Below, piece after piece: positions 28,433-53,361 of a stretch of 64,000 nucleotides of DNA (within the stretch, counting starts at the first letter, position 1; each line of letters starts with the position of its first letter). The stretch is from NCBI GenBank assembly GCA_951813565.1, contig OX638351.1, positions 5,280,001 to 5,344,000 of the forward strand, in the 5' to 3' direction. The DNA comes from an uncultured Poribacteria bacterium (GTDB lineage Bacteria > Poribacteria > WGA-4E > WGA-3G). A model generated the notes under the pieces. The model was not told the DNA's origin and searched no databases. It worked only from the letters and a program-made list of their open reading frames with translations. The position numbers and the translations under genes are program-made.

Positions 28433-29098
28433 TTAATAGGTGTTGTCATCCCAAAAAACTTTGAAAGTACGGAGCAGTATCTTGAAATCGTTCCATAGGG
28501 ACAAATTCTCAATGTATTCCAAATCAACAGGAATTCCTTCACGGATTGACCCGCGTCGACATGGACTTAACTGCCAAAGTCCTGTCATTCCTGGACGCAC
28601 GAGATGGCGTTGATTTTCCCATTCCTCGTAATTTTCAGCAAGAAACGGCATTTCTGGTCGGGGACCGACAAGACTCATTTCACCTTTAATCACGTTAAAT
28701 AACTGGGGTAATTCATCTAAACTCGTTTTCCGAATCCATTTACCAACCGATGTAATACGAATATCTTCAGTTGAATCGGGCTTTTCTGAATAGGAGGGCG
28801 TATCAATATGAAGGCTTCTGAACTTGTGAATGACAAAGAGTTTATTATTTATACCGACCCGTTTATGTGAGAAAAAAATTGGTCCACGCGAGGTGAGTTT
28901 AATGAGTATTGCTATGACTATCATGAAAGGGGAAAAGAGTAGAATTAAGAAAAATGCCGCTACAAAATCAAGCAAATATTTTCCTCGCTTTGCGTAGAAG
29001 GAGGAAAGTCTTTTAACTGAAGTCTGTGCTGCTGTGTCGTTCATATATGCAAAGTCAGTTTTGGAAACGCAAAATTTTGTTGGCAAATGTGCCATCAT
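28433..29098 (-). CDS. Initiating polyprenyl-phosphate sugar-1-phosphate transferase (Bac_transf)
   Basis: KFRSL, D.RIT.VG..IRKTSLDELPQL.NV..G.MSLVGPRP, RPGMTGLWQ. Confidence 0.95.
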   Translation of the reverse strand: MMAHLPTKFCVSKTDFAYMNDTAAQTSVKRLSSFYAKRGKYLLDFVAAFFLILLFSPFMIVIAILIKLTSRGPIFFSHKRVGINNKLFVIHKFRSLHIDTPSYSEKPDSTEDIRITSVGKWIRKTSLDELPQLFNVIKGEMSLVGPRPEMPFLAENYEEWENQRHLVRPGMTGLWQLSPCRRGSIREGIPVDLEYIENLSLWNDFKILLRTFKVFWDDNTY

Positions 29099-29125
29099 CC
29101 TTTACCTACACGAAATTAGTAGATT

Positions 29126-30247
29126 TCACTTTTTCTTCTGTAGTTTTTCAAAAACATCAAGATATTGTTCCGCAATATGATCCCAGTTGAATCGTTTTCG
29201 GATTTGTTCAGGGGCACGTTGGCGGAAGTCGTCAACCTTCTCTGGATTCTGTTCTAACGTCTCAATTTCGGCTTTGAGAGCCTCCGAAGTTTTGTCAAAG
29301 AGTACACCGTAAGTCCCGCCTTCCAAGACTTCATGGTTGAACGGTGTATTTAGTGCCAAAATGCAGTTAGAAAATCCTAACGCCTTCAAAATGGAAGGAT
29401 TGATGCCACCAAACTGATGTCCATGAATGTAAGCAAAGCAGTTATGGTGCAATTCCTTTATATGTTCAGAACTATCTATGTGTCCCAAAAAGATTACGTT
29501 TTCATTAGCGATGCTTTTCAATTTATCTAAAAATTCATTTTCAAGTTTGTTGCCCTTATAGTCAGCACCACCTGCTATTGCGAGTTTTTTCTGGCTATTT
29601 GAGTTGACAAATGCCTCCAAAATCAGGTCCGCATTATTATCAGGAACAAGACGGCTTGCAATCAAATAGTAATTTCGTGATTCAAGTCCATAAGTTTCAA
29701 GTATTTCAGGGTGTTCAGACGGTTCAATGTTTGCTCCGTAAGCGATATATGTTGTCTCAGCACCTAATTCTTCAAGGTAAAGTCTTTTCATTTCTTCGGC
29801 ATCGGTAATCACAATAGGAAACGCGGAAGTCGCCATCTTTGCTGCCCATTTGAAATAGACTGCACCTATACCTTTCCACTTTGGACGAAGCCATTCCATT
29901 CCATCAACATTGATAACAGCACTTTTGCCAGCAATACGGAAAAACCAACCAAAGGGACCATTGCCAGCATTCCATACCAAAATAGCATCAGAAGGTGAAA
30001 ACGAAGCGTGTAAAGTTGCTAAAAAACTGTGGCTGAGGGTACTAAATACTTTATGTTCTATGCTCGGTAAATAGACTAACTTAATGCCTTTCCATTCGCG
30101 TGGTCTCTCTTTAAAAACTGCTTTTCTACAATAGACAGTGACTTCATGTCCCGCTTCTACCCAGCGCGGTGCAAGTTCTCCCATGATGGTTTCCAGCCCA
30201 CTATAAGTTGCTGGAAGTCCTCGAATACCCAACACGCGAATTTTCAT
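29126..30247 (-). CDS. GT4 glycosyltransferase (DUF1972 type)
   Basis: GIRGLPATYSGLET, NVDGMEW.RPKW, SRLVPDNN, GGINPSIL. Confidence 0.9.
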   Translation of the reverse strand: MKIRVLGIRGLPATYSGLETIMGELAPRWVEAGHEVTVYCRKAVFKERPREWKGIKLVYLPSIEHKVFSTLSHSFLATLHASFSPSDAILVWNAGNGPFGWFFRIAGKSAVINVDGMEWLRPKWKGIGAVYFKWAAKMATSAFPIVITDAEEMKRLYLEELGAETTYIAYGANIEPSEHPEILETYGLESRNYYLIASRLVPDNNADLILEAFVNSNSQKKLAIAGGADYKGNKLENEFLDKLKSIANENVIFLGHIDSSEHIKELHHNCFAYIHGHQFGGINPSILKALGFSNCILALNTPFNHEVLEGGTYGVLFDKTSEALKAEIETLEQNPEKVDDFRQRAPEQIRKRFNWDHIAEQYLDVFEKLQKKK

Positions 30248-30402
30248 CTTAAGTCCTTCCGAATGATACCAAGATACACTTACAAAACAATTTCTTTGAT
30301 GCGTTAACCAACATGAATCTTCATTTAAAATGTTATTCCAATTGTGGTTTGTAATTCCACTCCATCAGTGAAGGGAAACAGCAGTGAACTTCAGGTTAAA
30401 CC

Positions 30403-32043
30403 TTAAAATCGATAAAGTGCTTTCGCTTGGATTTCATTTCCAGTTTCATGTGCATCTTGACGATTTTCAAAGTTTCGTCTCCAAATCCTTGCCCATTCGC
30501 CATAAAATGAATAATGACCAAGAGTAACCCAATTAAAACCGATCTTTAAGCGATGCTCACTTTCTGTAACCCCAGATAGTGGTGTCCACACGTCATCTTT
30601 TGGGGCGTCAGATGGATGATTTTTGTCTATGTTTCCTTCACCGTGGCGTTCAAGCTCGTACCCGAAAACAGTTTCAAGCTTATCTGTAAAACGTCTCCGC
30701 AGTTCGATCCATAGATTATCCGCATCAGAACCGATATGATGTCCAATCGGTGTCGTAAAGTGTTTGTAAACGTTTACAGGATTGACGTGTGTATATGCAT
30801 ATTGATTAATAAAAGCGTATTCTACATGAAAATCAGTATCTGACAGTCCAAATGGATCAGTAAGATAAATGCCGCCGAGGATTCCGAATTTTGTATCCCA
30901 ATGCTTAAAAACAGATACTGGATTTCCATCATCAATCATTACCTCGCCATATATTTCAAAATTGTCTATAGGACACAGGCGTATATCCGCACTTATCAGG
31001 ATATTATCGCCACTACCAGGAACCCGACTATCTGCACGTGAAATTGTCTGTTCGTTAATCAAGTAGATATTGACCGGATTGAGATACCCCAGCTCAAAAC
31101 GGTTTCCGAAAATGATTACCTCAGATATACCTAAACCCAATCTATCCCAGAAATATCCTTCCAACCTATGTCCCGAAATATATTTTTCATTAATTTCGTC
31201 TAATCTATCTTCTAAAATACCCGTGAATGCTGTGAAAGTGGTAGTTTTGTATGTAGTTTGCAACTTTAACATGTCTATTGCAATTGGGTTTGGAGAAATC
31301 AATAGATTGCCGTGATAGCCGGGCCCCCACTGGAGATTGTCTTGTCCAAATTGCAATTCAAACCAAGGGAAGTTAAACTTTAGGTAAGCATTAATCGCTG
31401 TTCGGTACTTCTGTCCAATTTGCAGTTCGCCCTCCAGCTGCCTATATTTAGATTCATCTGGATAAAAATCGTCAAAAATATCTCCATATAGCCATCTGTA
31501 TGCCATATTTGTTGTGAACGCAAAACCCTCTTTGACTTGTCCATAGAGATGCGGAAACCATGTTGTGACGAACATAGTGCCTTCAACCGGTTCTTTTTCA
31601 GACATGTTGTCCACTAACCTGGTAATTGTTCGCTGTCTCCCCCTTAAATCAAATGAAAAACGGTAGGTGGTGTCGTCACTGAGAGTAAACAAATGTGCCC
31701 GCCGATTGGGAGGAGTTTGTGTTCCAACCTCCGAGTAAAAGGCTAACAATTCCTTTAGACGTTTCTGATCGTTGACGCTCAACGTCAGTTCGCCGCTATC
31801 AAGTTTTTGAGACACCTCCACCAGAAAAGATGCAACCTGTTTTCGCGTAAACGGTAAAGAACCTCGCGCTACACCGGACACCACACGTTTGTTAAGTAAA
31901 CGATGAATAAAGCGGTAGGTTTCAGTATTAAAATCGCTTATATCTGGATTAAGTGGGACGTTTATAAGCGATGCGGCATTGGCGCAAGGTAAACACCAGA
32001 AATGTGTAACTAAGCATAATAGTAGAAGGATGCGTAAAATCAT
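30403..32043 (-). CDS. wzi: Capsule assembly Wzi-family outer-membrane protein
   Basis: Signal peptide, G.D..QWGPG..G.L..S.N, GHRLE, YLNP, YGEVMIDD, terminal YRF. Confidence 0.8.
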   Translation of the reverse strand: MILRILLLLCLVTHFWCLPCANAASLINVPLNPDISDFNTETYRFIHRLLNKRVVSGVARGSLPFTRKQVASFLVEVSQKLDSGELTLSVNDQKRLKELLAFYSEVGTQTPPNRRAHLFTLSDDTTYRFSFDLRGRQRTITRLVDNMSEKEPVEGTMFVTTWFPHLYGQVKEGFAFTTNMAYRWLYGDIFDDFYPDESKYRQLEGELQIGQKYRTAINAYLKFNFPWFELQFGQDNLQWGPGYHGNLLISPNPIAIDMLKLQTTYKTTTFTAFTGILEDRLDEINEKYISGHRLEGYFWDRLGLGISEVIIFGNRFELGYLNPVNIYLINEQTISRADSRVPGSGDNILISADIRLCPIDNFEIYGEVMIDDGNPVSVFKHWDTKFGILGGIYLTDPFGLSDTDFHVEYAFINQYAYTHVNPVNVYKHFTTPIGHHIGSDADNLWIELRRRFTDKLETVFGYELERHGEGNIDKNHPSDAPKDDVWTPLSGVTESEHRLKIGFNWVTLGHYSFYGEWARIWRRNFENRQDAHETGNEIQAKALYRF

Positions 32044-32085
32044 CTGATTACAGCCTCCATAGAATAATTTATATTGAAACCAAAT

Positions 32086-34176
32086 TTATTTTATAATTAT
32101 CATTCGGCGTGTCGCTTTCATCTGACCCGCCTGGAGTAAATAAAAATAGACACCGCTTGCAACAAGTTCACCCTCAGAATTACGCCCATCCCAATACGCT
32201 GCCCTTCCTTTTGTCCGATAAGTGCCTGCAGCCTGATAACCCATATTCAGCTTTCTAATGATTTCTCCCTTCAGATTATAGATATCAATGTCTACATCTG
32301 TATCTTGTGCCAAATCATAAGGAATCCATGTTTCTGGATTGAAAGGATTCGGGAAATTCGGAAGAAGGGTTGTTTTTTTAGGGGTTACGGTGTTAAACAG
32401 TGCTTCTAAGTTCGCAATTCCGCTGCGAAAAACGTCGGAACCGTCATCTGCTTGATATGCTTCAGTGAGCCATTCAGAAATGTTTTCAACATGGTCTGAT
32501 GAAACGGATGTTGAGGATGCTGATGCAATACAAGATTCCCCAAAATGCGATGCAACATATAACAAATCTATTATATCAACCTTTCCATCTTTATTCACAT
32601 CTGCTCTCGGATGTTCTGGAGTCTCTTTCCCAAAACTGTTTGAAACTAATATGAGATCTCGGACATCAACGACACCATCGTTGTTTATATCCCATGGTAA
32701 TGTTTGTGGAACTGTAATTTGTTCTGACGCATCTGGCAACGCCGCCTCCCAACCAGCATGAAGTTGTTTACTAAGGTCTGCTACAAGATCACTGTTTTCC
32801 GGAAGATTAGCAATATTGACTGTTTCATTTGGGTCAATGTGATAGTCGTAGAGTTCTCGTCCGCGTTGCCCATTGTTTCCCCATTCAGTATACCTGTACT
32901 GTTTTGTTCGTATAGAATTCCCGTTGGTACCTCCCCGATTAAGTTGACTAAAGACGGCAGTTTTCCACGCCCGAGTCGGTTGTTCAACGATAGGCATCAT
33001 ACTTATCCCCTCCAATTCAGAACTAATAGGTAGTTGACAGGCATCACACAACGTCGGATAGATATCAACCAATTCAACTAAGGCATCAGTTTTGGTGTCG
33101 GGGTAAGTTTGTCCTGGCACGCTGATAATTAACGGTGAACGTGCAGATACCTCAAAAAGAGTATTTTTACCCCATGTTCCATGCTCTCCAAGGTGATAGC
33201 CGTGGTCACCGACAAGAACGACAACTGTATTATCCGTAAGGTTGAGAGCGTCTAATTGCGCCAGAACACGGCCAACAAGAGCATCTGTATAACTTACTGA
33301 CGCAGCATAAGCACGAGTCAATTCTAATATTTTTTCTTGAGAAACAGGTGTTGTTCCATTAGGAACATCTTCATAGGATCTAATTTCATTCCAATTAGTT
33401 CGTGCTATACGCGGCGCGTTTTCTGGTGTTGTAGCATCAGTATCTATGTTAAAAGTCTGGGAATTGTATAAATCGAAGTATTTCTGTGGAGCGTTGTAAG
33501 GTAGATGTGGTTTGTAAAAACCAACAGCAAGAAAAAAAGGTTGATTTTGAATTTGTGCTAATACTTCTGCTACCTTCTCCGCGGTACGCCCATCCCGTAA
33601 TTCATGATCATCCACATCCAGGGCTTTCCATGACGGTGTTGTCGCTTTATCAAATGGTATCCAGGCAGGCCCCCAAGATCGAACACTCCAGGCACGCTCA
33701 TCATGTTGGAGTTCATGGATATGCAAAACTCTACCAATCGCCCGAGTATGATATCCATGCACTTTGAATTGTTGTGGTAATGTCACAGCATTTGGCAGGT
33801 GATCTCGAAAATCCGCTGAATTATCTGTTACACCAATTGTACCCGGCCGCAAACCGGTTATTATCGAAGTTCGAGATGGATTACAGAGTGGATATTGGCA
33901 ATACGCCCGGTTGAAAAGCGTGCCTCGCTTAGCCAAGGCATCAATATTCGGTGTATGCATCTCAGAATGACCGTAGCATCCAAATAGTGGACGGAGATCA
34001 TCAACCATGAAAAACAACACATTGTACTGACAATCAGCATTTGCTCTGAGTTTGGGCAAAAGTCCTGTCGTGAAAGCGGCAGCACCTACCTTCAAAGTTG
34101 TTGATAAGAAATCTCGTCGAGTAAACGGGTAAGAGGATACTTTCTGTTGCTTATCGTTTTTCATGAACCTTTCCAT
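32086..34176 (-). CDS. Tat-exported Cys-type sulfatase (iduronate-2-sulfatase-like) with dockerin-like repeat and C-terminal sorting domain
   Basis: TRRDFL, DDLRP, CNPSR, KPHLP, GDHGYHLGEHG; DINNDGVVD repeat; NFPNPFNPETWIPY. Confidence 0.92.
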   Translation of the reverse strand: MERFMKNDKQQKVSSYPFTRRDFLSTTLKVGAAAFTTGLLPKLRANADCQYNVLFFMVDDLRPLFGCYGHSEMHTPNIDALAKRGTLFNRAYCQYPLCNPSRTSIITGLRPGTIGVTDNSADFRDHLPNAVTLPQQFKVHGYHTRAIGRVLHIHELQHDERAWSVRSWGPAWIPFDKATTPSWKALDVDDHELRDGRTAEKVAEVLAQIQNQPFFLAVGFYKPHLPYNAPQKYFDLYNSQTFNIDTDATTPENAPRIARTNWNEIRSYEDVPNGTTPVSQEKILELTRAYAASVSYTDALVGRVLAQLDALNLTDNTVVVLVGDHGYHLGEHGTWGKNTLFEVSARSPLIISVPGQTYPDTKTDALVELVDIYPTLCDACQLPISSELEGISMMPIVEQPTRAWKTAVFSQLNRGGTNGNSIRTKQYRYTEWGNNGQRGRELYDYHIDPNETVNIANLPENSDLVADLSKQLHAGWEAALPDASEQITVPQTLPWDINNDGVVDVRDLILVSNSFGKETPEHPRADVNKDGKVDIIDLLYVASHFGESCIASASSTSVSSDHVENISEWLTEAYQADDGSDVFRSGIANLEALFNTVTPKKTTLLPNFPNPFNPETWIPYDLAQDTDVDIDIYNLKGEIIRKLNMGYQAAGTYRTKGRAAYWDGRNSEGELVASGVYFYLLQAGQMKATRRMIIIK

Positions 34177-36266
34177 TATTTTATAATTACCATTCGACGT
34201 GTGGCTTTCATCTGACCCGCTTGGAGTGTGTAAAAATAGACCCCACTTGCAACAGGTTCCCCAACTGCATTACGTCCGTCCCAGTACGCTGTACGCGATC
34301 GGGTGCGATACGTGCCAGCAGTCTGATAACCAATTGTTAGTTGACGGATAAGGTTGCCCTTCAGGTCATAAATATCAATTTGAACATTTGCATCTGATGC
34401 CAAATCATAAGGAATCCATGTTTCTGGATTGAAAGGGTTTGGATAGTTGGCCAAGAGAGTGGTTTTTTCTGGCACAACAACATTCATCAGCTCTTCCAGT
34501 TTCGAAATTCCCTTGCGAAAAATTACTGAACCGTTATCTAATTGGCGTGCTTCAGTGATCCACTTTTCGATGTTGTTAATATGCATTGATGAGATACCGG
34601 TTGAATTTTCAGGTGCGGCCTGATGCGTAGATTCACCAAAATGTGCTGCAACCAGAACTAAGTCAATAATGTTAACACTGCCGTCTTGATTCACGTCTGT
34701 TTTCGCGTGTGCCGGTACTTCTGCACCAAAATCGTTGGCAACGAGAACCAGGTCTTGGATATTGACAATACCGTCGTCATTTATATCCCAAGGTAACGTT
34801 TTTGGAACAGGAGTTAGTTCTTGTATATCTGGCAAAGCATCTTGCCAGCCAGCCATTAATCGTTTACTAAGATCGGTAACAAGTTCAGCATTTTCCGTTA
34901 GATTAGCAATATTGACTGTTTCATCTGGTTCAGCGAGATAATCGTAAAGTTCTTTTCCTTTTATCCCATTATTTCCCCATTCAGTATATCGGTATTGGGC
35001 AGTTCGTATAGACTTCCCATTTGTGGTGCCTCGTTTCAGCTGACTAAAAGCGGCTGTTTTCCATGGACGACTCGGTGCCTCAATGACAGGCATCAAACTA
35101 AAACCTTCTAATTGTGATGGCACAGGTATTTGACACGCTTCACATAACGTTGGGTATATATCAACGAGTTCTGTCAGAGCATCTGTTTCATTAGATTGTT
35201 GTCCAGGAACACAGATAATCATAGGAGATCGAAGCGCAACTTCAAAAAGAGTATGCTTTCGCCAAGTGCCGTGCTCTCCAAGATGGAAACCATGGTCACC
35301 AACAAAAACAACCACGGTTTTTTCTGAAAGACCCAGCGTATCTAACTGTTGGATCACACAACCAACTTGTGCGTCCATGTAGCTTGTTGATGCAGCGTAA
35401 GCTCGCATCAATTCTAATGTTTCCTCATCTGATATAGGTCCTTCATCAGGAATATCAAGATATTCTCTCAGCCCATCTAATTTGTTATTTGCGATATCAG
35501 GGGCATCATTCGGTAGCGTGGTAGTTGCAGGCAGAGAGAAGTCTTGTTGTGTGTAGAGATCGTAATATTTCTGTGGCACATAAAAGGGCAGATGCGGTTT
35601 CTCAAAGCCAACAGCGAGGAGAAAGTTTGTGTGTTGTATCTCTGCCAAAACCGAAACTGCTTTTTCAGCGGTTCTGCCATCTGACAGATCGTTATCTTCA
35701 ACATCAAGTGACTGCCAGACAGGAATATGTAAAGGATTAAAGGGGATCCATGGTGGTAACCATGAAGGCACACTCCATGAGTTTGCATCATCCTGTGCTG
35801 CCGCGTTATGACCAATTTTTCCAACAGATTGGGTGTGGTAACCGTGGGCTTTAAAATGCTGTGGAAGTGTTACTGCATCTGGTAACTTCTCACGAAAATC
35901 GTTTCCATTAAAGAAAACTCTTGTTGTGTCAGGTCTTAATCCAGTTAGCATTGATGTCCGGGAGGGGTGACACAACGGAATTTGGCAATAGGATCGGTTG
36001 AAAAGGATCCCTCTTTCAGCAAGCTTATCAATGTTAGGAGTATGCATTTCTGAATGGCCATAGCAGCCTAGCATAGGACGTAGGTCGTCTACGACGATGA
36101 ACAATACATTGTATTGTCCCGCGCCATCTGCACGCAGTTTGGGTAAAAGTCCTGTGGTAAAAGCTGCCGCGCCTGCTTTCAAGCTGGTCGAAAGGAAATC
36201 GCGTCGGGTAAAAGGACGTTTTTGAGAAGGGTGATCTTGTACTGGCAGGATTGAATTTCGTTTCAT
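34176..36266 (-). CDS. Tat-exported Cys-type sulfatase, tandem paralog
   Basis: TRRDFL, DDLRP, CHPSR, KPHLP, GDHGFHLGEHG; dockerin-like repeat; NYPNPFNPETWIPY. Confidence 0.92.
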   Translation of the reverse strand: MKRNSILPVQDHPSQKRPFTRRDFLSTSLKAGAAAFTTGLLPKLRADGAGQYNVLFIVVDDLRPMLGCYGHSEMHTPNIDKLAERGILFNRSYCQIPLCHPSRTSMLTGLRPDTTRVFFNGNDFREKLPDAVTLPQHFKAHGYHTQSVGKIGHNAAAQDDANSWSVPSWLPPWIPFNPLHIPVWQSLDVEDNDLSDGRTAEKAVSVLAEIQHTNFLLAVGFEKPHLPFYVPQKYYDLYTQQDFSLPATTTLPNDAPDIANNKLDGLREYLDIPDEGPISDEETLELMRAYAASTSYMDAQVGCVIQQLDTLGLSEKTVVVFVGDHGFHLGEHGTWRKHTLFEVALRSPMIICVPGQQSNETDALTELVDIYPTLCEACQIPVPSQLEGFSLMPVIEAPSRPWKTAAFSQLKRGTTNGKSIRTAQYRYTEWGNNGIKGKELYDYLAEPDETVNIANLTENAELVTDLSKRLMAGWQDALPDIQELTPVPKTLPWDINDDGIVNIQDLVLVANDFGAEVPAHAKTDVNQDGSVNIIDLVLVAAHFGESTHQAAPENSTGISSMHINNIEKWITEARQLDNGSVIFRKGISKLEELMNVVVPEKTTLLANYPNPFNPETWIPYDLASDANVQIDIYDLKGNLIRQLTIGYQTAGTYRTRSRTAYWDGRNAVGEPVASGVYFYTLQAGQMKATRRMVIIK

Positions 36267-36324
36267 AAGTACGATCTTTTGTGTAGATTAGAATAGTCTT
36301 TTACCGAATCTATTTGAAAGTCCA

Positions 36325-37326
36325 CTAACTATTATACCCTAAACTTGACATCGTGTCATAGAAAATCGGTGCTATCTTTGGGTGTAAATCAAAAGGTTCT
36401 CTTGGCGGCACCGGATTTAGGGTATGCCGCGCATAATTCTGAAAGGTTTTGTCCATTGGCAGTTCACAAAAATCACATAGAGCCGAAAGCGTTTCCTCAG
36501 GTTTTGATGTTAATTCTTCAAAATGAACTTTGTAGGTACAATCGGGTAAGATTTGCATTAGATGCAGCCCTTCACGCATAGTCAATATCCATTCAAGCGC
36601 CGCCCTGTCTAAATGTCGATCAAAATTTTTCACGTCCTCAACAATATTTTTCAAGTCTGCGTCTGTAGTAACCAATTGATCTACTATTAGTTTCCATTTG
36701 CGGTCGTTCACACCCCACCAATCGTGGTTTTCGTCATTAACTTGAACACCGAGTCGTTTTGACCAGTTGGCAATTGAATGGCACGTATCCCACCCATTTC
36801 GCACGAGGAAGATAAAACGTGCATCGGGAAAAAGGGCCTTGACGAAATCAACCCTGAAGATGAGTTCTGGGTATTTATCAACGAGTCGTTTTGAACCAGT
36901 AACTGACAAATAAGCACCAAACATCTGAGCAGCACGTTGACACATTTTGTCTGTTGCTTCTTCATCTGTGAGGCGGTACTTCGCGTGGTTTAAACTATAG
37001 TTGCCGATGATGTCCTCATGTGGATGAATGAGGTGCCACATCGCTTTCGGTTCATTCAGGTACCCAACATCTTTATGCATGGAAAGCACTACCCCTAAGA
37101 TTGTAGTTCCACTTCGCCCCGTGCCAAGAATGAAGATAGGTTTTTCAACAGGTGTGAATCGCCTACTACTTCTCGCAGCCCTTTTGAGAATAGAAAATAT
37201 GATCGGATTTATCCACCTACCTTTTGTTGTTACAGGACGTCCTTCAAAAAGGGTATAACTTATCAGACGAGTTATTGCTTTTGTGGGACGCGTTATGATA
37301 TAGTCAGAATTAAGTTGGGCAATCAT
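36325..37326 (-). CDS. Sulfotransferase
   Basis: 5'-PSB IFILGTGRSGTTIL; DKYP; 3'-PB LVRNGWD...S. Confidence 0.92.
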   Translation of the reverse strand: MIAQLNSDYIITRPTKAITRLISYTLFEGRPVTTKGRWINPIIFSILKRAARSSRRFTPVEKPIFILGTGRSGTTILGVVLSMHKDVGYLNEPKAMWHLIHPHEDIIGNYSLNHAKYRLTDEEATDKMCQRAAQMFGAYLSVTGSKRLVDKYPELIFRVDFVKALFPDARFIFLVRNGWDTCHSIANWSKRLGVQVNDENHDWWGVNDRKWKLIVDQLVTTDADLKNIVEDVKNFDRHLDRAALEWILTMREGLHLMQILPDCTYKVHFEELTSKPEETLSALCDFCELPMDKTFQNYARHTLNPVPPREPFDLHPKIAPIFYDTMSSLGYNS

Positions 37327-37349
37327 GTTTTCATTGGATCAATATTTGG

Positions 37350-43385: not shown

Positions 43386-43417
43386 TCATTTAGGTTCAAT
43401 TCATCTAAAATCATGCA

Positions 43418-44740: not shown

Positions 44741-44768
44741 GACGATTTCAAGTCACTGATGGAGAAAA

Positions 44769-45764
44769 TTATTTCCAACCTTCAGGCAGGTTTTTGCGAA
44801 TTTCAATATTACTAAACTCTGGAACTGAACGTGGCCCAACAGATTTTGCCCACGCCGCCATTCTTCCCAAACCTTCTGGAAGCGAAACAAGCGACGTTTT
44901 CCCGAAAACCTTGTGGAATTTTTCGTGTGCGCAATAGGCATGTTTCACCTCTTCTCTCTCGCGAAGATGTTTTACGGGGACCTCCTTTTGCATGGCTGTC
45001 ATGACTAAATCTGCTAATTCATTGACAGAAACATGTTTATCCGAACCGACGTTAAAAACTTCACAAGAGGCTTCTGGTATATCTACGCAGCGAGCAATAT
45101 GTGGTGCCACATCTGCAATATGTGTAAAAGCGCGTGTCTGTTCTCCATCCCCAAAGATAATCAAAGGTTCACCCTGCATAATTTTATTCATGAAGATACC
45201 GATGACGTTTCGGTATTTATCACTGATATTCTGGAGTTCACCATAGACATTGTGTGGTCTAAAAATTGTGTAGTCTAAGCCAAAGAGACGTTTAGAAGCA
45301 ATAAGGTCCTGTTCCACAGCATATTTAGCGATACCGTAAGGATCTTCAGGCATCGGTATGAGTTCTTCGTGCATCGGAAGTTGGTTTTCACCGTAAACTG
45401 CGATAGAAGAGGTAAACACAAACCTTTCAACATTATAGTTCACAGCGGCATTTATCAAGTTAACGCTTCCGATGAGATTGTTTTGATAATTAAATCGTTT
45501 GATGAAATGACTCAAGCCTTCTGCTGCATACGCCGCAAGATGATAGATGTAATTAAAATTATATTGTTTACAGAGTTGGTCTATGAGTGGAGCATCAAGT
45601 ATGCTACCTTCGACGAATGTCACATCAGGGTTGACGGTTTCCAGAAATCCACCGCTTATGTCGTCAAGTACAACTATTTGATGATTATCGTCACGCAGTA
45701 ACTCATTAACAAGATGAGCACCCATAAAACCGGCTCCACCAGTGACCAATGAGGTTTTTTTCAT
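44769..45764 (-). CDS. NAD-dependent nucleotide-sugar epimerase/dehydratase
   Basis: TGGAGFMG, HLAA, SSIAVYG, YGIAK, RPHNVYG. Confidence 0.95.
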   Translation of the reverse strand: MKKTSLVTGGAGFMGAHLVNELLRDDNHQIVVLDDISGGFLETVNPDVTFVEGSILDAPLIDQLCKQYNFNYIYHLAAYAAEGLSHFIKRFNYQNNLIGSVNLINAAVNYNVERFVFTSSIAVYGENQLPMHEELIPMPEDPYGIAKYAVEQDLIASKRLFGLDYTIFRPHNVYGELQNISDKYRNVIGIFMNKIMQGEPLIIFGDGEQTRAFTHIADVAPHIARCVDIPEASCEVFNVGSDKHVSVNELADLVMTAMQKEVPVKHLREREEVKHAYCAHEKFHKVFGKTSLVSLPEGLGRMAAWAKSVGPRSVPEFSNIEIRKNLPEGWK

Positions 45765-45777
45765 ATTCTTTACCTTT

Positions 45778-48402
45778 TTATTTTAGGACTACAAGTCGTT
45801 TTGTCTGCTTAGTTTTTGGTGTTGTGAGTTCGTAGATATAGACACCGCTCGCAACAGCCTCTCCTGATTCGTTCCTGCCATCCCAATATGCGGCTTTACT
45901 CCGGTTGATATAATACCCTGATGTCTGATGTCCAGAAAAAACCGTCCGGACAACCTTACCGGTTGTGTCATAAATGCGTATAGTAATCTCAGCATCCTCG
46001 GCAAGTTGATAAGGTATCCATGTTTCAGGATTAAAAGGATTCGGGTAATTCACATGAAGCTGTGTTTCCATGGGACCATTGCCCGGCATCAGTAGACGTC
46101 TTAAAAATCGTTTTACCAATTCTATTTGTGTGGAGTCGCCTTGCATTTCTTCAATTTTTAGATAAAAAGAATAGAGAAGCGCAATATCAGTTTCTATCAG
46201 CGAGGGGAAACGATTTAACATGTTATTTGACACTACAACAGTTCGATGTTTCTGAACAGGTGCGGCGGTGTTCTGGTTTCCCTCAATTATCTGGATAATC
46301 CAAACAACATCATCAAGGTTTACCTCTCCATCTTTGTTAGCATCAATTCGCGCGTTTGAGGGAGGAGACTCTCCAAAATGTGCAATGACAATAAGGAGGT
46401 CAAGTATATCAATCTGTCCATCCTGATTGACATCACCAGGACGTCGCGTTTGAACGCCACTTTCAACAACGTGCAATACTTGGTTAACTTCAATGTCAGT
46501 CAACATTTGAAGTATTCCGCTGGGCCAATAGATGGCCAATTCGCTAACTTTATCATTCTGTGCAAGTCCAAAATGAATCCGTTTCTGATCTTGTTGAGCC
46601 CAATGAATTCCACCACCGTTTTCTCGTAATTGGGTTTTGCCATCAGGTGTCGTTGCAAACACCCGTGCCCCGATACCATCCCGATTTGAGACAGTGCCTT
46701 CCAAGTCAATCTGCAGCCAATTGTTGCCACTACTGATATTGCGAAAGAGTTGATCAGGCCCTTCACTAAATGGGTATTCACCTCTACCGTTTGTGACGAA
46801 GATATCAAGATAACCGTCCCTATCGTAGTCTGCTACTGTAGCACTCTGTCCTCTACCTTGCATGCTTCCAACTATCCCACTTGAAATAGCGCGTTCTATG
46901 AATGAGCCGTCCCCAAGGTTTTCATAAAGGTGATTTGGAGAATTTTCACTTGTTCTTGAACGGACAACATAGATATCCATATCCATATCATTATCAAAAT
47001 CGCCTGCAGCAACACACCGCCCATCTGAGAATGTGTCAGGGCCACCTAAAGCAGATGAGACATGGAAAATGTTCCCGCCATTGTTAATCAGAAGACGAGA
47101 TGGAGGTTGTTCCTTTAGGTCTGTTATAGAAAAGTTTATTGTCTCTATTTCGGTTATAGGTTTAGATGATCTGATTATCGTAGATACAGGACGATCATTT
47201 GTTAAAAATGTCCATTTTTGGGTCTCCGGTTCATAGCCTACGTAGACGCCAAAGTTCTCATTTTGTGGGCGCGCCTTGAGACCAACAACTTTCGGATCAT
47301 TAGGAGATAGCGTAACTTTGTATGTAGCAGCTCTTAGTGTTGGCATGACCCCTACAAATTCACCATCTTGAAATTCTATAACTTGATGCCCAACGACCCC
47401 AATTTTGACCAAGTTGACCCGAGGGCCCCACTCTGAATAGATTTCATAAGATACATCCCCTGCCGTTTTAAAGCTCAAGCCTTTTTCTATTCCAGTGCTT
47501 CGCCGTAGGTTCAATTCCAATGTGTTAGCATCTACCTGTCCAACAAAGGACTGGTAAAGCCCGCGCGCGAAAAAGATGTCTGAAAGCAAATCTCCGTTAA
47601 AATCAGCAATGACAGCATCCTGCACAGAGTAACCGTTAGGAATTGTCAGATTTTCAATTATATTGGTAAAAGGTATACTTGATGTATCATATACTACAAG
47701 AGGATAACGGTGGTAACTTACCACCAGATGCATCGTTCCGGCGGGGGTTATGCTGGCTAACTGTGCCAGAGCCGCGCTCTTTTCAAGAGAAAAACCTGCC
47801 TGATCACTTTCATTTTCAAACCCACTGAGTGTTTGACCAAATAATGCAGATTTCACCAAGTTACCGTTACTATCCGTATTGGTTATCCCGGTAAGAAGGA
47901 CATCAAGCTTGCCATCACCGTTCCAATCAAACCAGAGAGGAGTTCTCCCTCGTAAAAGAGGGTAATCTACCCCAAGTTCAGCGGCGCGTTCTATAAGTAT
48001 ACCGTTTTCATTGACGTAGAAATGGTTTGCGTGGTTATTGTGTGTTCCACTACTTAAACCACCACCACTACCGGATAGGATAATTAAATCTTGATCACCA
48101 TCGTTATCATAGTCTGCCCAGGCAACACCGTGTGTATCTGCATAAGGATTTGCATCCCAGACCACATCAATAATATCTGTAAAAGTACCATCACCGTTGT
48201 TACGATATAGACTCGGTTTGTGTCTGTGGTTAGTAGCCCATAGATCAAGATATCCATCTCCATCAAAATCTCCCCACGCATTTCCCCAACTTTCACCGAT
48301 ACGTGTGATACCAGCCTGATGCGAGACATTTTCAAATTGAATTTCACTTGACGCTGTAGACAGTAGGCAAAAAATGAACAATAATGTTATGAAAATTCGC
48401 AT
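45778..48402 (-). CDS. FG-GAP/ASPIC-UnbV (CRTAC1-like) protein with dockerin-like repeat and C-terminal sorting domain
   Basis: DFDGDGYLDL repeats; NNWLQIDLEG..SNRDGIGARV...HFGL...WPSG; NYPNPFNPETWIPY. Confidence 0.9.
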   Translation of the reverse strand: MRIFITLLFIFCLLSTASSEIQFENVSHQAGITRIGESWGNAWGDFDGDGYLDLWATNHRHKPSLYRNNGDGTFTDIIDVVWDANPYADTHGVAWADYDNDGDQDLIILSGSGGGLSSGTHNNHANHFYVNENGILIERAAELGVDYPLLRGRTPLWFDWNGDGKLDVLLTGITNTDSNGNLVKSALFGQTLSGFENESDQAGFSLEKSAALAQLASITPAGTMHLVVSYHRYPLVVYDTSSIPFTNIIENLTIPNGYSVQDAVIADFNGDLLSDIFFARGLYQSFVGQVDANTLELNLRRSTGIEKGLSFKTAGDVSYEIYSEWGPRVNLVKIGVVGHQVIEFQDGEFVGVMPTLRAATYKVTLSPNDPKVVGLKARPQNENFGVYVGYEPETQKWTFLTNDRPVSTIIRSSKPITEIETINFSITDLKEQPPSRLLINNGGNIFHVSSALGGPDTFSDGRCVAAGDFDNDMDMDIYVVRSRTSENSPNHLYENLGDGSFIERAISSGIVGSMQGRGQSATVADYDRDGYLDIFVTNGRGEYPFSEGPDQLFRNISSGNNWLQIDLEGTVSNRDGIGARVFATTPDGKTQLRENGGGIHWAQQDQKRIHFGLAQNDKVSELAIYWPSGILQMLTDIEVNQVLHVVESGVQTRRPGDVNQDGQIDILDLLIVIAHFGESPPSNARIDANKDGEVNLDDVVWIIQIIEGNQNTAAPVQKHRTVVVSNNMLNRFPSLIETDIALLYSFYLKIEEMQGDSTQIELVKRFLRRLLMPGNGPMETQLHVNYPNPFNPETWIPYQLAEDAEITIRIYDTTGKVVRTVFSGHQTSGYYINRSKAAYWDGRNESGEAVASGVYIYELTTPKTKQTKRLVVLK

Positions 48403-48451
48403 TTTTCTCCTTATATATTCTGTGAGATACCTTTACGGAAATGATTCAAAA

Positions 48452-50373
48452 TTACTTCCATATAACCATTTTTCTTGTAGCGGTGAAACTATCAGCAGAA
48501 AGCGTATAGAAATAGATTCCACTTGCCACAGGTTCACCAAGCTCATTACGACCATCCCAATATGCCGATCGAGATTTCTTGTGATATGTGCCTGCAGGCA
48601 ATTGCCCCAACTTCAGCGTCTTTATAAGTTTCCCATCCGCAGAATGAATTGAGATGCTAACCTCTGCTGGTTTTGCCAACTGATACGGTATCCACGTTTC
48701 AGGGTTAAACGGATTTGGATAGTTTGCCAGCAATGCTGTTGCACTCGGTAGTTCTTCTATGGACGTAAGAACTACCAGAAGCTGCTCCAGAATAGCAATC
48801 CCGTTTAGGAGATGTGGCGCTTGGACATCAAGCTGCTTTGCAAGTCGGATCCACTGCGTGAGATCTTCGGGAGTAAGATTAGATGTTTTAACTGAATGTT
48901 TACTGAGTGTAGGCGCAGCAGCTGAACCTATCTCAGCAGCAATTAGGACTAAGTCTCTGATATCCACAATGCCATCATTGTTAACATCTGGGTAAAGGTT
49001 TATCTGTGCAAGTGCCGCTAAGTTAGGATCGTCAAAGTTGGTTGCGGCTAAGACAATATCTGTAATATTGACAACACCATCGCGGTTCACATCCTCTGGT
49101 TTGTAGATAGGAATTGTTTGGTTGCTATTATAATATTCCTCTAAATTACTTATCAATCCAGCTATCGGGGAGAAATCCGATATACGGTTGTTGCTAAGAT
49201 CAAGGTATGTCAGTCCTATCATATTCTTTAGTGGCGATATATCAACAATATTGTTGTCGTGGAGATCTAAATCTGTGAGATGTATCATATCATTTAACGG
49301 AGATATATCCGATATCTTATTACCATCAAGATCTAATACGGTTAGGTATATCATATCTTTTAGCGGAGATACATCAGTAATATCATTGTCATCAAGATCA
49401 AGGTCTGTGAGATGTATCATATCTCTTAGTGGAGATACATCCGATATCTGGTTATTGTGGAGATCCAGCACAGTCAAATTTGTCAAATTCTTTAGTGGTG
49501 ACATATCCGATATATCGTTGTCGTCAATATCCAGCACTGTCAGTCTTGTCATATCTTTGAGTGCGGATATATCAGATACCTGGTTGTCGTCAATATCTAA
49601 GTTCCTCAGATTTATCAAATTTTTGAGTGCGGATATATCTGATATCTGGTTGTCGGAAATATCCAACCATACTAAATTTGTCATATCTTTGAATGGTGAC
49701 ACATCCGATACCTGGTTGTCGTCAATATCCAGCCATGTGAATTTGTCATATCTTTGAGTGGTGACACATCTGATATTTGGTTGAGCTCAACGTCCAGGTA
49801 TGTCAAGTTTGTCATATCTTTGAGTGGTGACACATCTGATATTCGATAGTTGTAGGCAATATGTAAGTATGTCAAGTTTGTTAAAGCGCTAAGCGGAGAT
49901 ATATCAGTTATACTGTTAGCTCTTAGTGAAAGCCAGGTCAGATTCTTCAAATTTTTGAGCGGGGTTAAATCTGATATTCTCTGATTGCGGTGAAGATCTA
50001 ATAGCATCAGATTTGTCAAATTTTTGAGCGGGGTTAAATCTGCAACACGATTGATTCCAAGATGCAGCGTAGTAAGATTAACAGCAAACTCAAGTCCACT
50101 TATATTGCGAATACCAGATTCAAACGCATCAAACGATTCCAAACTCGCCATATCCGCCTGAGTGATAGCGTCACCTGCCTCTTTGCCCAGTGCAAGTTCA
50201 AGAGCACCACGGAGTTTGGGGTCAGGAATGTGGACGGTCTGTGCAGTTGCCATCCGGTGATGTCCTAAAAAGAACACACACGAGATAAAAATCAGTATGA
50301 CTGCCTTGGTAAATTTCTGGTTCTGCCTCGCAAACCTTATGTGTGTCGATTCTATAAATATGGAAAATTTCAA
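48452..50373 (-). pseudogene. Internalin-like LRR protein with dockerin-like repeat and sorting domain, frameshift near 49740
   Basis: IPDPKLR cap and 22-aa LRRs split over ORFs 49681..50373 and 48452..49702; one base missing relative to neighbouring repeats. Confidence 0.85.
49170..50080 (-). repeat. 66-bp LRR-coding tandem repeats
   Basis: Repeating 'ISDISPLKDMTNLT.LDL..N' units. Confidence 0.85.
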
Positions 50374-50500
50374 GCGATCAATGCTCCTTTAATCAAACTT
50401 TAGAAACTCTATTCAATTTGAAAAAGACTGGAAAGATAGGAAAGATACAGCGATTTGTTCTCTACCTACCTGCCAGTCTTATGGTTTTCAAACCTGCTTG

Positions 50501-51109
50501 CTATTCTGCTCTATTTTCTGCTCCAGGTGTTGCCACTATAGCTTGAAAATCACCGGTGCCATTTGGCCAACGCCCAAAGGCAACGTCCGTTTCTTGCTCT
50601 TCAAATGTAATGCTATCCAGCACTTGATTACCGCGCGCATCGGTATCCACAAGCATGACCGTTTCGCCACCTTTAGACAACTTGAAATTGGCATGCACCC
50701 CTTCTGTAGCATCTTCGTCATCATGATCTTCATCTAACCAGACGATCAAATATCCGTTTGCCGGAATTACAGTGTTTTCTGGAAATACCCATTTTGTAGG
50801 ATTGTCCTCTTTGTCACTCAGATACAGTCCTGTTAACGATAACGCCATATCGGTAAGATTGTGCAATTCAAGCCAGTCGTCATAGTCGCCTTGCGGGTCA
50901 GGGACGGTATTATCGTTATCTGCCATCAATTCGTTAATTACGACAGGAGATCCTTCCATCATTTTATCTGGAGGCATTATGTTGTCTACAGGATCCATAG
51001 GATCCATATCTGGCAGGGTGGGCTTTACCACTTGTTGTGCTTTCTCACACGATATAAATACGGCACATCCAAGCAATATCAAAATTATTGTTAACTGAAA
51101 TTTTACCAT
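50501..51109 (-). CDS. Lamin-tail-domain lipoprotein
   Basis: Lipobox-like FISC; VVINELMADN, DWLELHN, NFKLS..GE, TPGA.N. Confidence 0.85.
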   Translation of the reverse strand: MVKFQLTIILILLGCAVFISCEKAQQVVKPTLPDMDPMDPVDNIMPPDKMMEGSPVVINELMADNDNTVPDPQGDYDDWLELHNLTDMALSLTGLYLSDKEDNPTKWVFPENTVIPANGYLIVWLDEDHDDEDATEGVHANFKLSKGGETVMLVDTDARGNQVLDSITFEEQETDVAFGRWPNGTGDFQAIVATPGAENRAE

Positions 51110-51252
51110 TTAAATCCTTTCATACTTTGAGATATAAATTGATTAATGAGATTGCAGCATTCAGTGCCAATTGGTCACTGCTGTCTCATATAACTTACGA
51201 AACTATTTTAGCACATCATAGCTATAAAGAAAACAATATTTTCATTTTAATT

Positions 51253-52455
51253 TTACAAAAACTTCCGATAAACATTCATAATCTTTTCATAGTGAATATC
51301 AGCATTAAATTCGGTTTCCATTTTATGGCGTCCAGTTTTTCCCATCTCAGCGGATTCATCTTTATGTTCAAACATCCATAGCAATTTTTCTCGTAGGGCT
51401 TCTGTTCCAGCAGAAGGAACGAGAAAACCGTCAACCTCGTTTTCAATTAATTCTGGTATACCACCAATATCTGCACCAATTACCGGTTTTCCGTAAGCAA
51501 AAGATTCTAAAACTGACATTGGGCAATTTTCATACCATTCGGATGGCAAAACAGTACAGATGCTATTCAGAATCAGATCGCGGAGTTCGTCCCCCTGTTT
51601 AAAACCCAAAAGGTGAATATGTTCACACCCATTTTGCTCTATAATTTGCTGAACTTCAGGCATTGCTTCACCATCACCGACGATATAGAGAGGCACTTGT
51701 TTCAGAGGCGCTGCAGCCTCAATTAGTGTCAAAATACCTTTACTCCGATGCACCCGTCCGAAATAGAGTATATAATCTCCGACAGAGAAATTTGGTGTAA
51801 TGTGAGAGACATCTGTAAAGTTGTGAACCGTTGAAATCTTTTCTTCAGGAATTCCATACTGTATCATCTTTTTTCTCAGAAAATGAGATACAGAAATGAA
51901 ATGGTCAAACTTTTCAACCGCACCTAATTGTCGTGAAACATAGGACTCGGTAACACTCAGGGCAGTACGTGCAATTGAACCTCTGTTACACTTTTTTGGA
52001 AGTGCACGCCAGAAGTGTTTGCCTTCACAGTCCTCACAAATCTCATCGTTTGACAGATGACTGTAGACAGGACAAGTTAATTTATACTCATGCAATGTCT
52101 GAATTAGAGGAATTCCTGCTTTTTTAAGACTTCCCAAAATTGAGGCGGTCAATTTACCATAGTAGATGTGAAAGTGTGCGATATCTACATCTGTTTTGTC
52201 TAACAAACGCTGAATTGATTTAACAGCATCGCGTGAATATAAAAAACGCAGCAGGTCAACCGGTCCAGGATTTTCAAAATTTGCTGCACGCGGAAAATAC
52301 TGATCCCACTCAGTTGGTTCATTCTTTGAACTCGCTGCAGTAAATGGAATTACCTTGTGGCCATGTTTTTGCAGCAACTCACCCATCGTAAAAAAATATC
52401 TGTCAGAGCCACCGCGAATATAATGATTTTGAGATATATTCAGAACTGTTAACAT
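51253..52455 (-). CDS. GT4 glycosyltransferase
   Basis: GGSDRY, TLHEYKL.CP, YFGR...KG, PSEWYENCPMSVLES. Confidence 0.93.
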   Translation of the reverse strand: MLTVLNISQNHYIRGGSDRYFFTMGELLQKHGHKVIPFTAASSKNEPTEWDQYFPRAANFENPGPVDLLRFLYSRDAVKSIQRLLDKTDVDIAHFHIYYGKLTASILGSLKKAGIPLIQTLHEYKLTCPVYSHLSNDEICEDCEGKHFWRALPKKCNRGSIARTALSVTESYVSRQLGAVEKFDHFISVSHFLRKKMIQYGIPEEKISTVHNFTDVSHITPNFSVGDYILYFGRVHRSKGILTLIEAAAPLKQVPLYIVGDGEAMPEVQQIIEQNGCEHIHLLGFKQGDELRDLILNSICTVLPSEWYENCPMSVLESFAYGKPVIGADIGGIPELIENEVDGFLVPSAGTEALREKLLWMFEHKDESAEMGKTGRHKMETEFNADIHYEKIMNVYRKFL

Positions 52456-52461
52456 AATCCA

Positions 52462-53361
52462 TCACTCCCGAGGACCAGCACCGTCAAAACGTGTTTCGGC
52501 GATCGGTTCATAATTTACCGTTCCAAGAGGTTTCGTAATAATGTTTGCGTCATTGGAATCAAGAATGGTCTTGTCGATTACTTCATTGACACTTGTTCCC
52601 CACCAATTGTTGGGAATTCCAAAATCAAATTTTACATTTAACTTTAGCGCGAAATTGTTGTTTTCAAAGTTATTATTCTGAACGATGGATTGTACATTCT
52701 CACAGAAAATACCTGTATCATTTTTTATGATGTTATTTCTTTCAATTCGGGGTCGGGTTTGGCGACCTACGGTGCTAATACCGATGTCATTATCATGAAT
52801 TGCATTATGTTGAATTTTTGCGGTACTTCCATCCAGAGCAACTGCGGTTTCATTATATCGGAATGTACAATCTGCCACTGTCGGAGAAGTCGTTTTGATG
52901 TCAAGGGCAACCGTAGCATATTCTATTACTGTTCCTCTCAAGAAACTCTCGGAATCATGTGTGTGGTCAAATTGGATGCCGTGCCAATCGCCAATTCGTG
53001 GATTAATACTATTCGAAGTTAAGTGCACCGGTTCACTAAACGCCCCGAACACCAACGGCGTTCCTATTTTCAGTACTCCTCTTACATTGAGATGTGCATC
53101 ACGCCCAAATTTGACGACAGTTCCGGGCAATATCTCAAGCACAACGTTAGGCAATACCTCAAATGTTCCTTGCACAATATAGGTTTTCTCAGGTTCCCAC
53201 GTTTCGTCCTCTGAAAGTAGATAGTCTCTTAGAACGACTTCAGAATCGTTTTTGCCACCATTAACTGAAGTTGAATCTTGACATCCGCAAACCGTGAATA
53301 CAAAAGCGAAGATAAATATAAAAAAATATAGTTGAAAATGTAGTGCTTTCATTTGTAGCAT
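52462..53361 (-). CDS. Right-handed beta-helix repeat lipoprotein
   Basis: Lipobox VCGC; L.I.PGT.VKF, GDWHGI.F, N.I..N..GI repeats, NNWWG. Confidence 0.8.
   Translation of the reverse strand: MLQMKALHFQLYFFIFIFAFVFTVCGCQDSTSVNGGKNDSEVVLRDYLLSEDETWEPEKTYIVQGTFEVLPNVVLEILPGTVVKFGRDAHLNVRGVLKIGTPLVFGAFSEPVHLTSNSINPRIGDWHGIQFDHTHDSESFLRGTVIEYATVALDIKTTSPTVADCTFRYNETAVALDGSTAKIQHNAIHDNDIGISTVGRQTRPRIERNNIIKNDTGIFCENVQSIVQNNNFENNNFALKLNVKFDFGIPNNWWGTSVNEVIDKTILDSNDANIITKPLGTVNYEPIAETRFDGAGPRE

Follow-up and report, generated by a model that had tools for sequence, protein, structure and literature searches.

The 64,000-nucleotide window analysed here (contig OX638351.1, positions 5,280,001 to 5,344,000, from an uncultured Poribacteria bacterium) carries on its minus strand, at 28433-53361, a block of genes that probably directs the synthesis of a surface polysaccharide with several sulfates on a short repeat. 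To our knowledge, a densely sulfated sugar coat is uncommon among bacteria. Domain searches of the open reading frames (ORFs) of the window located in this interval all the genes listed in a first-pass annotation, which had described a co-directional block of often abutting or overlapping genes; this description is borne out, and four genes absent from it were added, encoding a beta-helix lipoprotein, a lamin-tail protein, a split leucine-rich repeat (LRR) protein and an ASPIC/FG-GAP protein. In the order of transcription the block comprises:

52462..53361, minus strand: right-handed beta-helix (NosD-like) predicted lipoprotein, core (Pfam NosD; Atlas beta-helix clusters)
51253..52455, minus strand: family 4 glycosyltransferase (GT4) GT4b, core (domain match; homologues of 48-52% identity beside the same glycosidase in loci L189 and L191)
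50501..51109, minus strand: lamin-tail-domain predicted lipoprotein, accessory slot 1 (domain match)
48452..50373, minus strand: LRR protein with a dockerin-like part and a C-terminal domain (CTD) of T9SS (type IX secretion system) type, accessory slot 1 (frameshift-split ORFs 49681-50373 and 48452-49702)
45778..48402, minus strand: FG-GAP/ASPIC-UnbV protein with a dockerin-like part and CTD, accessory slot 1 (domain match)
44769..45764, minus strand: NAD-dependent nucleotide-sugar epimerase/dehydratase-family enzyme (domain match)
43418..44740, minus strand: MurJ-family flippase, predicted Wzx role (MurJ family E 1e-43)
42366..43385, minus strand: sulfotransferase ST4, HS3ST/NDST-type motif, no signal peptide (PDB: 3RNL E 5e-12, then NDST1 1NST E 2e-8)
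41420..42349, minus strand: sulfotransferase ST3, HS3ST/NDST-type motif, no signal peptide (PDB: 3RNL E 4e-30, then HS3ST1 1ZRH E 1e-15)
40027..41376, minus strand: Wzy-like polymerase, core (Wzy_C 27.6 bits; polytopic)
38405..40030, minus strand: clan GH-A glycosidase (glycoside hydrolase, GH) with an N-terminal membrane segment, GH51-adjacent (ELGNE and TEWN glutamate motifs)
37350..38408, minus strand: sulfotransferase ST2, GxxRSGTT type (motif, domain match)
36325..37326, minus strand: sulfotransferase ST1, GxxRSGTT type (best PDB matches tyrosylprotein sulfotransferases and CurM)
34176..36266, minus strand: S1_7-like sulfatase with a twin-arginine translocation (Tat) motif, a dockerin-like part and CTD, accessory slot 2 (6HHM E 9e-86, human iduronate-2-sulfatase E 4e-65)
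32086..34176, minus strand: second S1_7-like sulfatase, of another subtype and sharing 65% identity with its neighbour, with a Tat motif and CTD (domain match)
30403..32043, minus strand: Wzi-like outer-membrane protein (Caps_assemb_Wzi)
29126..30247, minus strand: GT4 with DUF1972 (GT4a), WchF/Cps2T-like (domain match)
28433..29098, minus strand: small initiating phosphoglycosyl transferase (PGT; Bac_transf)

Intergenic spacing within the block ranges from -22 to 155 bp, with overlaps between wzy and the glycosidase gene (-4), the glycosidase gene and ST2 (-4) and the two sulfatase genes (-1); the sulfatase genes abut ST1 and wzi. The co-directional run extends upstream to hen1-pnkp and downstream to a DUF983 gene, the guanine-cytosine content of the block is that of the rest of the window, and near-identical contigs from two sequencing runs of one study span 31500-50500. 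Promoter and terminator scans of the region gave counts at the level of shuffled sequence (promoters 48 vs 48.7 and 31 vs 25.2).

Thirteen genes form the core of the locus: those of the PGT, the two GT4s, the epimerase, the MurJ-type flippase, Wzy, Wzi, the four sulfotransferases, the glycosidase and the beta-helix lipoprotein. Each is a single orthologue across loci, Wzy being the most conserved (median 80% identity), and three minimal loci (L141, L142 and L145) hold these 13 genes only. Synteny in relatives, proposed as a check in the first-pass annotation, proved to be conserved for the biosynthetic core together with the glycosidase: the order MurJ-ST4-ST3-Wzy-GH-ST2-ST1 is retained in 30 of 30 fetched relatives, a few with small insertions, and, within a larger set of 80 loci, in 74 of the 75 showing all seven genes, being strictly contiguous in 65 of the 80. 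The 80 best genome loci comprise 77 labelled Poribacteria and three labelled uncultured bacterium. Because this order is retained in 74 of 75 loci, the block is not a product of chance. Its distribution marks out a single family: wzy was found in 106 of the 111 genomes of family f1 and in none of the 64 other Poribacteria, while ST3 was found in 106 of 111 and, as distant matches only, in seven of the 64. The ST3-like genes of families f3 and f8 (approximately 28-32% identity) were rejected as cluster members, since in five fetched regions they lie outside such a cluster. A plasmid search returned distant matches only.

Some variation within the core was noted. The epimerase gene is replaced by a pair encoding an FGGY-type kinase and a cytidylyltransferase-like protein in 15 of the 30 fetched loci and in 15 of the 80 of the larger set. 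This pair, exemplified at L039:11986-13376 by a kinase of 331 amino acids (aa) and a 133-aa cytidylyltransferase-like gene, occurs in about half of genus g1; a PDB search with the kinase gave no useful match. In trees, genome G021 groups with the close relatives of G000 for MurJ and ST4 and not for the glycosidase, a conflict that points to the exchange of this module. The beta-helix lipoprotein gene lies immediately upstream of GT4b in all 23 loci with a labelled upstream gene; its product, for which a PDB sequence search gave no match, is possibly an epimerase or lyase. It is also worth recording that a 177-aa predicted lipoprotein is encoded directly after ST1 in 27 of the 80 loci (L026:3788-4318) and a 203-aa protein after GT4b (L053:9183-9791), both with no Pfam match.

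The four sulfotransferases were assigned in the first-pass annotation to two motif types, and both types are present, the loop binding 3'-phosphoadenosine 5'-phosphosulfate (PAPS) and the catalytic motifs being nearly invariant in 74 orthologous loci. ST1 and ST2 match tyrosylprotein (TPST) and CurM sulfotransferases, ST2 weakly; homologues of ST2 occur in Thiocystis, Candidatus Thiodiazotropha and Candidatus Electrothrix. Only ST3 and ST4, two of the four, are of the heparan type. For both, a bacterial structure, 3RNL, is the first PDB match, with scores far above those of the animal enzymes HS3ST and NDST1 that follow. The aligned PAPS-loop lysine and catalytic glutamate of the HS3ST/NDST family are kept in ST3 and ST4; in ST3 two arginines and a histidine near the catalytic residues of HS3ST1, which presumably have a binding role, are not conserved. 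Neither an N-terminal hydrophobic segment nor a signal peptide was found in any of the four proteins, which suggests that sulfation takes place on the cytoplasmic side before flipping. Two more stand-alone sulfotransferases are encoded elsewhere in the genome (L088:8567-9382 and L087:8759-9499), one of them of the Stf0 type.

The core glycosidase, which had been read as GH79/GH51-like and compared with heparanase, fits neither GH51 nor GH79 cleanly and is nearer to GH51. In all 74 of the 74 loci compared, the two glutamate motifs of clan GH-A are unchanged. A profile search with the glycosidase clade retrieved GH51 entries only and no GH79, the match covering mainly the N-terminal half of the barrel (E 1e-17); the Pfam GH79n score of 19.9 bits is below the cut-off of 23.1, and the GH51 C-terminal domain Alpha-L-AF_C gave no match in the protein. 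In a structure model of moderate quality (predicted local distance difference test, pLDDT, 64) the fold ranking places GH51 first (Z 24.6, root-mean-square deviation (rmsd) 3.8, 408 residues aligned), followed by bacterial heparanase (Z 22.3, rmsd 4.0, 390 aligned), human proheparanase (Z 20.1, rmsd 4.1, 409 aligned) and 4ZN2 (Z 18.8, rmsd 4.1, 355 aligned), which we take to be PslG. The heparanase-like part of the earlier reading appears less likely.

Named close homologues of the glycosidase come from Candidatus Poribacteria, and beyond the phylum a profile search retrieved a tight clade whose members include proteins of tubeworm endosymbionts, Thermodesulfobacteriota and Deltaproteobacteria. 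In metagenome loci this clade occurs in clusters of a similar kind. One such locus, L191, has counterparts of eight core genes, three sulfotransferases out of the four among them (a DUF1972-GT4, Wzy 40%, ST4 34%, MurJ 37%, the glycosidase 40%, GT4b 48%, ST2 29% and ST1 51%), and is not from a close relative, as its glutaminyl-tRNA synthetase is only 57% identical to that of G000. In L193, genes for Wzi, PGT, Wzz, CysC, Wzx, a sulfotransferase, Wzy and the glycosidase lie together, and in L188 and L189 wzy adjoins the glycosidase gene. No sulfatase was found in the available sequence of L188, L189, L191 and L193, of which L188, L189 and L193 are partial loci. L191 and L193, which share this glycosidase clade as a marker, are apparently undescribed sulfated-polysaccharide clusters of non-poribacterial origin. 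Since the glycosidase is nearer to GH51 and occurs in homologous clusters free of sulfatases outside Poribacteria, its likely role is that of a hydrolase associated with biosynthesis and not that of a heparanase. Among the 78 loci, more distant relatives of the glycosidase have mixed contexts, two being near sulfatases (L197 and L198). Weak matches in genus g6 were rejected as cluster members, being ordinary GH51 genes in another context.

As to assembly and export, both an initiating PGT and glycosyltransferases are present in the block. Glycosaminoglycan-synthase-type transferases belong to families GT2, GT45 and GT64; none, of GT2 or other type, was found in the block, which has only GT4 and Bac_transf domains. 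The Wzy_C score of the polytopic Wzy-like protein, 27.6 bits, is just below the Pfam cut-off of 31.7 and exceeds it only when neighbouring matches are included. The MurJ-family flippase of the block is distinct from two other MurJ-like genes of the genome; a third MurJ-like flippase gene (L272:5412-8368) is divergent from an adjoining UDP-glucose-dehydrogenase-like gene. While wzi is part of the locus, a wza-wzc pair is unlinked, approximately 46 kb away, and is co-distributed with the cluster, Wzc being found in 35 of 36 genomes of the genus vs one of 24 others, where the single match has 30% identity. For sulfate activation, cysC and sat are present in the genome, so that the search for export and sulfate-activation genes outside the locus, which the earlier annotation had suggested, yielded both. 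Other parts of the genome also encode a pair of nucleotide-sugar dehydrogenases, LpxC and two additional WaaL-like proteins. The donor of GT4a is probably not dTDP-L-rhamnose, as no rmlC was found in 25 genomes of the family; the Cps2T profile score of GT4a is 180 vs a cut-off of 500.

Two slots of the operon hold CTD-tailed genes, those of the LRR protein, the ASPIC protein and the sulfatases, all of which share the dockerin-like part and the T9SS-type tail. Out of 31 TIGR04183 tails above the cut-off in the genome, four are encoded within these 25 kb; CTD genes also form arrays elsewhere. According to the available part of Kamke 2014 (PMC3909097), such tails were noted in Poribacteria and no structural genes of T9SS were found. 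In the present genome a T9SS-like set was identified, consisting of one SprA-like gene (156 vs a cut-off of 200), three PorV/PorQ-family genes (two of the three above the cut-off) and three PorU-like genes (371-420 vs 420). The set (L266:8288-14788; L267:7308-13808; L268:4820-10069; L269:5616-13559; L265:8490-14264) includes a SprA-like protein of 2167 aa and PorU-like peptidase C25 proteins of 1750-2170 aa. Peptidase C25 (PorU-like) genes occur in 21 of 21 sampled genomes, in all four families.

The two sulfatases had been called iduronate-2-sulfatase-like; they are indeed S1 sulfatases with a strong match to the human enzyme, though Formosa P18_S1_7 (6HHM) is closer. The traits of S1_7 were found, namely a CxPxR-type motif, the metal ligands, best matches among S1_7 members and formylglycine-generating enzyme in the genome (21 family matches). 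In 138 full-length copies eight core catalytic residues are invariant, one lysine being arginine in 36, and the loops around residues 120-185, near the active site, are highly variable. Copy number between ST1 and wzi varies: in 66 complete loci, 18 of the 84 distinct loci being omitted because this interval is cut off or split, there are 0, 1, 2, 3, 4 and 5 copies in 14, 14, 16, 15, 3 and 4 loci, respectively. Of the 14 zero-copy loci, two retain a remnant consisting of the tail only, and another carries a sulfatase in the upstream slot instead. A genome-wide search found the clade absent from six genomes that possess the core, namely G008 (84% complete), G026 (90%), G176, G177, G178 and G180 (completeness not given), and lone copies outside the locus occur in G004 and G179. 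The median identity within arrays is 61%, the nearest neighbour lies in the same genome for one of 119 copies, and 12-19 subtypes can be distinguished, with 0-7 of 41 arrays repeating a subtype. Recent tandem amplification is rejected on these figures, which mean that the sulfatases are long-resident and differentially lost, neither new insertions nor products of new amplification. They reside in the locus, yet it can do without them.

We consider it probable that this is a family-wide Wzx/Wzy capsule locus for a multi-sulfated short repeat, in which the core glycosidase serves assembly and the optional exported sulfatases act more likely on outside glycans. The conserved core, the PAPS-dependent enzymes and the co-distributed wza-wzc pair argue for such a polysaccharide, so that the multiply sulfated surface polymer proposed in the first-pass annotation is supported as a gene-based prediction. 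Gene content, synteny and distribution are the observed part, and every chemical step is taken from family knowledge. The PGT would prime undecaprenyl phosphate and the two GT4s would add two further sugars, which would limit the repeat to approximately a trisaccharide unless transferases act in trans; one sugar donor would be supplied by the epimerase or by the kinase and cytidylyltransferase pair replacing it. The four sulfotransferases would work from the cytoplasmic side, either on the lipid-linked unit or on its donors, with PAPS from Sat and CysC, and, assuming one sulfate per enzyme, would give approximately 1.3 sulfates per sugar, vs 0.25 in the cyanobacterial polysaccharide synechan. 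The MurJ-type flippase would then translocate the unit, Wzy polymerise it, the unlinked Wza-Wzc export the chain and Wzi retain it. Within the periplasm, the membrane-anchored GH-A enzyme may trim or clear chains in the manner of PslG and BcsZ. Expression of the CTD-tailed LRR, ASPIC and sulfatase proteins would go along with that of the coat, on which the SprA/PorV/PorU-like set would display them. The many variable sulfatase subtypes, set against a constant self-made substrate, suggest that these enzymes are more likely aimed at outside glycans.

Several observations weigh against parts of this reading. The weak Wzy_C score, the existence of LpxC and of two other WaaL-like genes and the distance to wza-wzc make an O-antigen or a protein glycan conceivable. 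The view of the sulfatases as passengers is countered by the near confinement of their clade to the locus and family (32 of 36 genomes of the genus vs one of 24 others, where the match has 44% identity and lacks the tail), by their staying with wzi where the locus splits (G013, G014 and G017) and by the eight catalytic residues kept in every copy.

The same observations bear on the main alternative, a system that builds and then edits its own coat: the exported endo-sulfatase array would remove chosen sulfates after export, so that the pattern varies between strains or conditions, much as animal SULF enzymes vary the sulfation of heparan sulfate. The confinement of the clade, the abutment of its genes on ST1 and wzi, the old, distinct paralogues kept in order and the conserved export signals (Tat motif in 136 and CTD tail in 134 of the 138 copies) agree with it, as does the closest solved relative, P18_S1_7, an enzyme endo-acting on polymer. 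Against it stand the complete loci and the six genomes lacking any sulfatase, the lack of one in L191 and L193, the at least 12 subtypes facing four fixed sulfotransferases, the non-enzymatic LRR and ASPIC proteins that occupy the same slots with the same tail, and the location of the sole copy of G179 in an unrelated CTD-gene array. Own-capsule editing is possible and, on balance, we hold it unlikely; the picture of a dominant sponge-symbiont family with a heparin-dense capsule whose sulfation is rewritten after export by old, diversified surface endo-sulfatases of the same operon is equally unlikely. From the remodelling originally proposed, the core position of the glycosidase and the residence of the sulfatases stand, while the occurrence of the glycosidase in sulfatase-free homologous clusters, its nearness to GH51 and the sulfatase-free loci speak against the rest.

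A second, rather improbable alternative is that the product is a sulfated O-antigen-like or anchor glycan, comparable to the anionic lipopolysaccharide (A-LPS) of Porphyromonas, to which the CTD-tailed proteins of the operon would be joined by PorU-like sortases. For P. gingivalis, both the cleavage of the CTD and the attachment to A-LPS have been described (PMC4804311), and the concentration of tails in this block, the SprA-, PorV/PorQ- and PorU-like genes and the presence of LpxC and WaaL-like genes are in line with it. However, PorU-like genes occur in all four sampled families and the cluster only in f1, Wzi is encoded in the locus and Wzc follows the distribution of the cluster, the three minimal loci and L191 have no CTD gene, CTD genes are arrayed elsewhere too, and the SprA and PorU scores are at or under the curated cut-offs.

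True glycosaminoglycan mimicry, i.e., a backbone of uronic acid and hexosamine with N- and O-sulfation as in heparan sulfate, cut by a heparanase and selected to resemble the sponge matrix, is very unlikely in spite of the HS3ST and NDST1 matches with their shared lysine and glutamate, the two nucleotide-sugar dehydrogenases and the fold shared with GH79 heparanases, since the block offers only two GT4s and a PGT and lacks both a GT2-type synthase and a core N-deacetylase (a deacetylase occurs once, in G023), 3RNL outscores the animal enzymes, ST3 lacks the arginines and histidine of HS3ST1, the glycosidase profile matches GH51 alone, only half of the sulfotransferases are of the heparan type, tubeworm symbionts, Deltaproteobacteria, Thiocystis and cable bacteria also have homologues, and heparan-type domains are also found in Wzx/Wzy clusters of non-symbionts (PMC13390465, available part).

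Poribacteria are best known as sponge symbionts. In the available parts of PMC8546597 and PMC8163846 they are described as degraders of sulfated glycans; the locus implies that one family also makes a sulfated glycan, as a fixed family trait, in cells of little-known surface chemistry. ST1-ST4 would offer soluble bacterial enzymes for the production of heparin-like polymers, and the glycosidase clade works as a pointer to related sulfated-polysaccharide clusters, as yet undescribed, of other marine bacteria. Were the editing alternative true, the locus would represent a bacterial system for editing a sulfation code; its four sulfotransferases would be new enzymes of polysaccharide sulfation, and its glycosidase would stand for a new family linked with sulfated Wzy polymers.

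Some features of the surroundings should be added. The frameshift of the LRR-CTD gene (48452-50373) sits inside 66-bp repeats, and both slippage and assembly error are conceivable; the gene is likewise split in the near-identical contig L190, whose repeat content differs, and two sequencing runs carry 134 extra letters in the repeat region. A complete Hen1-Pnkp RNA repair pair (53449-57517, minus strand) is co-directional with the capsule core and lies 87 bp upstream of it, a linkage retained in many relatives. An IS200/IS605 TnpB gene is found at 57633-58745 on the minus strand (guided_TnpB above the cut-off), and TnpB-related copies are inserted into the cluster in G020, L134 and L164.

A literature search on Poribacteria with sulfotransferase and related topics found no description of the locus, Podell 2018, Kamke 2013 and supplements lying outside its coverage. 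The comparison with known systems refers to the available portions of the papers cited. The synechan (xss) cluster of Synechocystis PCC 6803 (PMC8205485) likewise has Wzx/Wzy, distinct sulfotransferase subfamilies and an unlinked export gene. Synechan was shown to be sulfated, a property predicted for the present product; xss has eight glycosyltransferases and two sulfotransferases, with two sulfates per eight sugars, in contrast to three transferases and four sulfotransferases here, where Wzi, a core glycosidase and exported sulfatases are also encoded. In the portion of its main text available, 'glycoside hydrolase' and 'sulfatase' do not occur outside a reference title. The wps-1 cluster of Actinoplanes missouriensis (PMC13390465) shares Wzx/Wzy, two sulfotransferase types, one of them a heparan-sulfate sulfotransferase domain, and a glycosidase, and mutants show that those genes matter; it differs in having two sulfotransferases, a GH26 enzyme and a Gram-positive host, and 'sulfatase' is absent from the available main text. 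The putative sulfated glycosaminoglycan-like cluster of Pontiella sulfatireligans (PMC7356697) is likewise marine with a sulfotransferase in a polysaccharide cluster, but has one sulfotransferase among eight glycosyltransferases. Vibrio KMM 8419 and Cobetia KMM 1449 (PMC11641403, PMC11766843) are also marine, with sulfotransferases in polysaccharide clusters and sulfated capsules, but use ABC-transporter export and carry one sulfate per disaccharide. Four sulfotransferases on a repeat of approximately three sugars would exceed all these ratios (two on eight in synechan, one per disaccharide in Vibrio and Cobetia).

At the level of single enzymes, Formosa P18_S1_7 and human iduronate-2-sulfatase are the closest solved relatives of the sulfatases, which keep the core catalytic residues. 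P18_S1_7 is an endo-xylose-2-sulfatase, and the known bacterial S1_7 enzymes are catabolic, acting on xylose-2-sulfate or galactose-4-sulfate (PMC9096561), whereas those described here have a Tat motif and a CTD and belong to a biosynthetic operon. GH51 arabinofuranosidases and GH79 heparanases/glucuronidases of clan GH-A share with the glycosidase the barrel and beta-sandwich fold and two catalytic glutamates, but are only 13-19% identical to it, and the present enzyme is membrane-anchored and tied to Wzy clusters. Unlike animal heparan sulfate, sulfated post-polymerisation, the present polymer is predicted to be sulfated before flipping. Polysaccharide clusters with sulfotransferases, and the pairing of a heparan-type sulfotransferase domain with a glycosidase in Actinoplanes, are thus already known; what sets the present locus apart is four sulfotransferases against three transferases, a glycosidase clade that has no assigned family, an array of resident sulfatases and fixation throughout one family.

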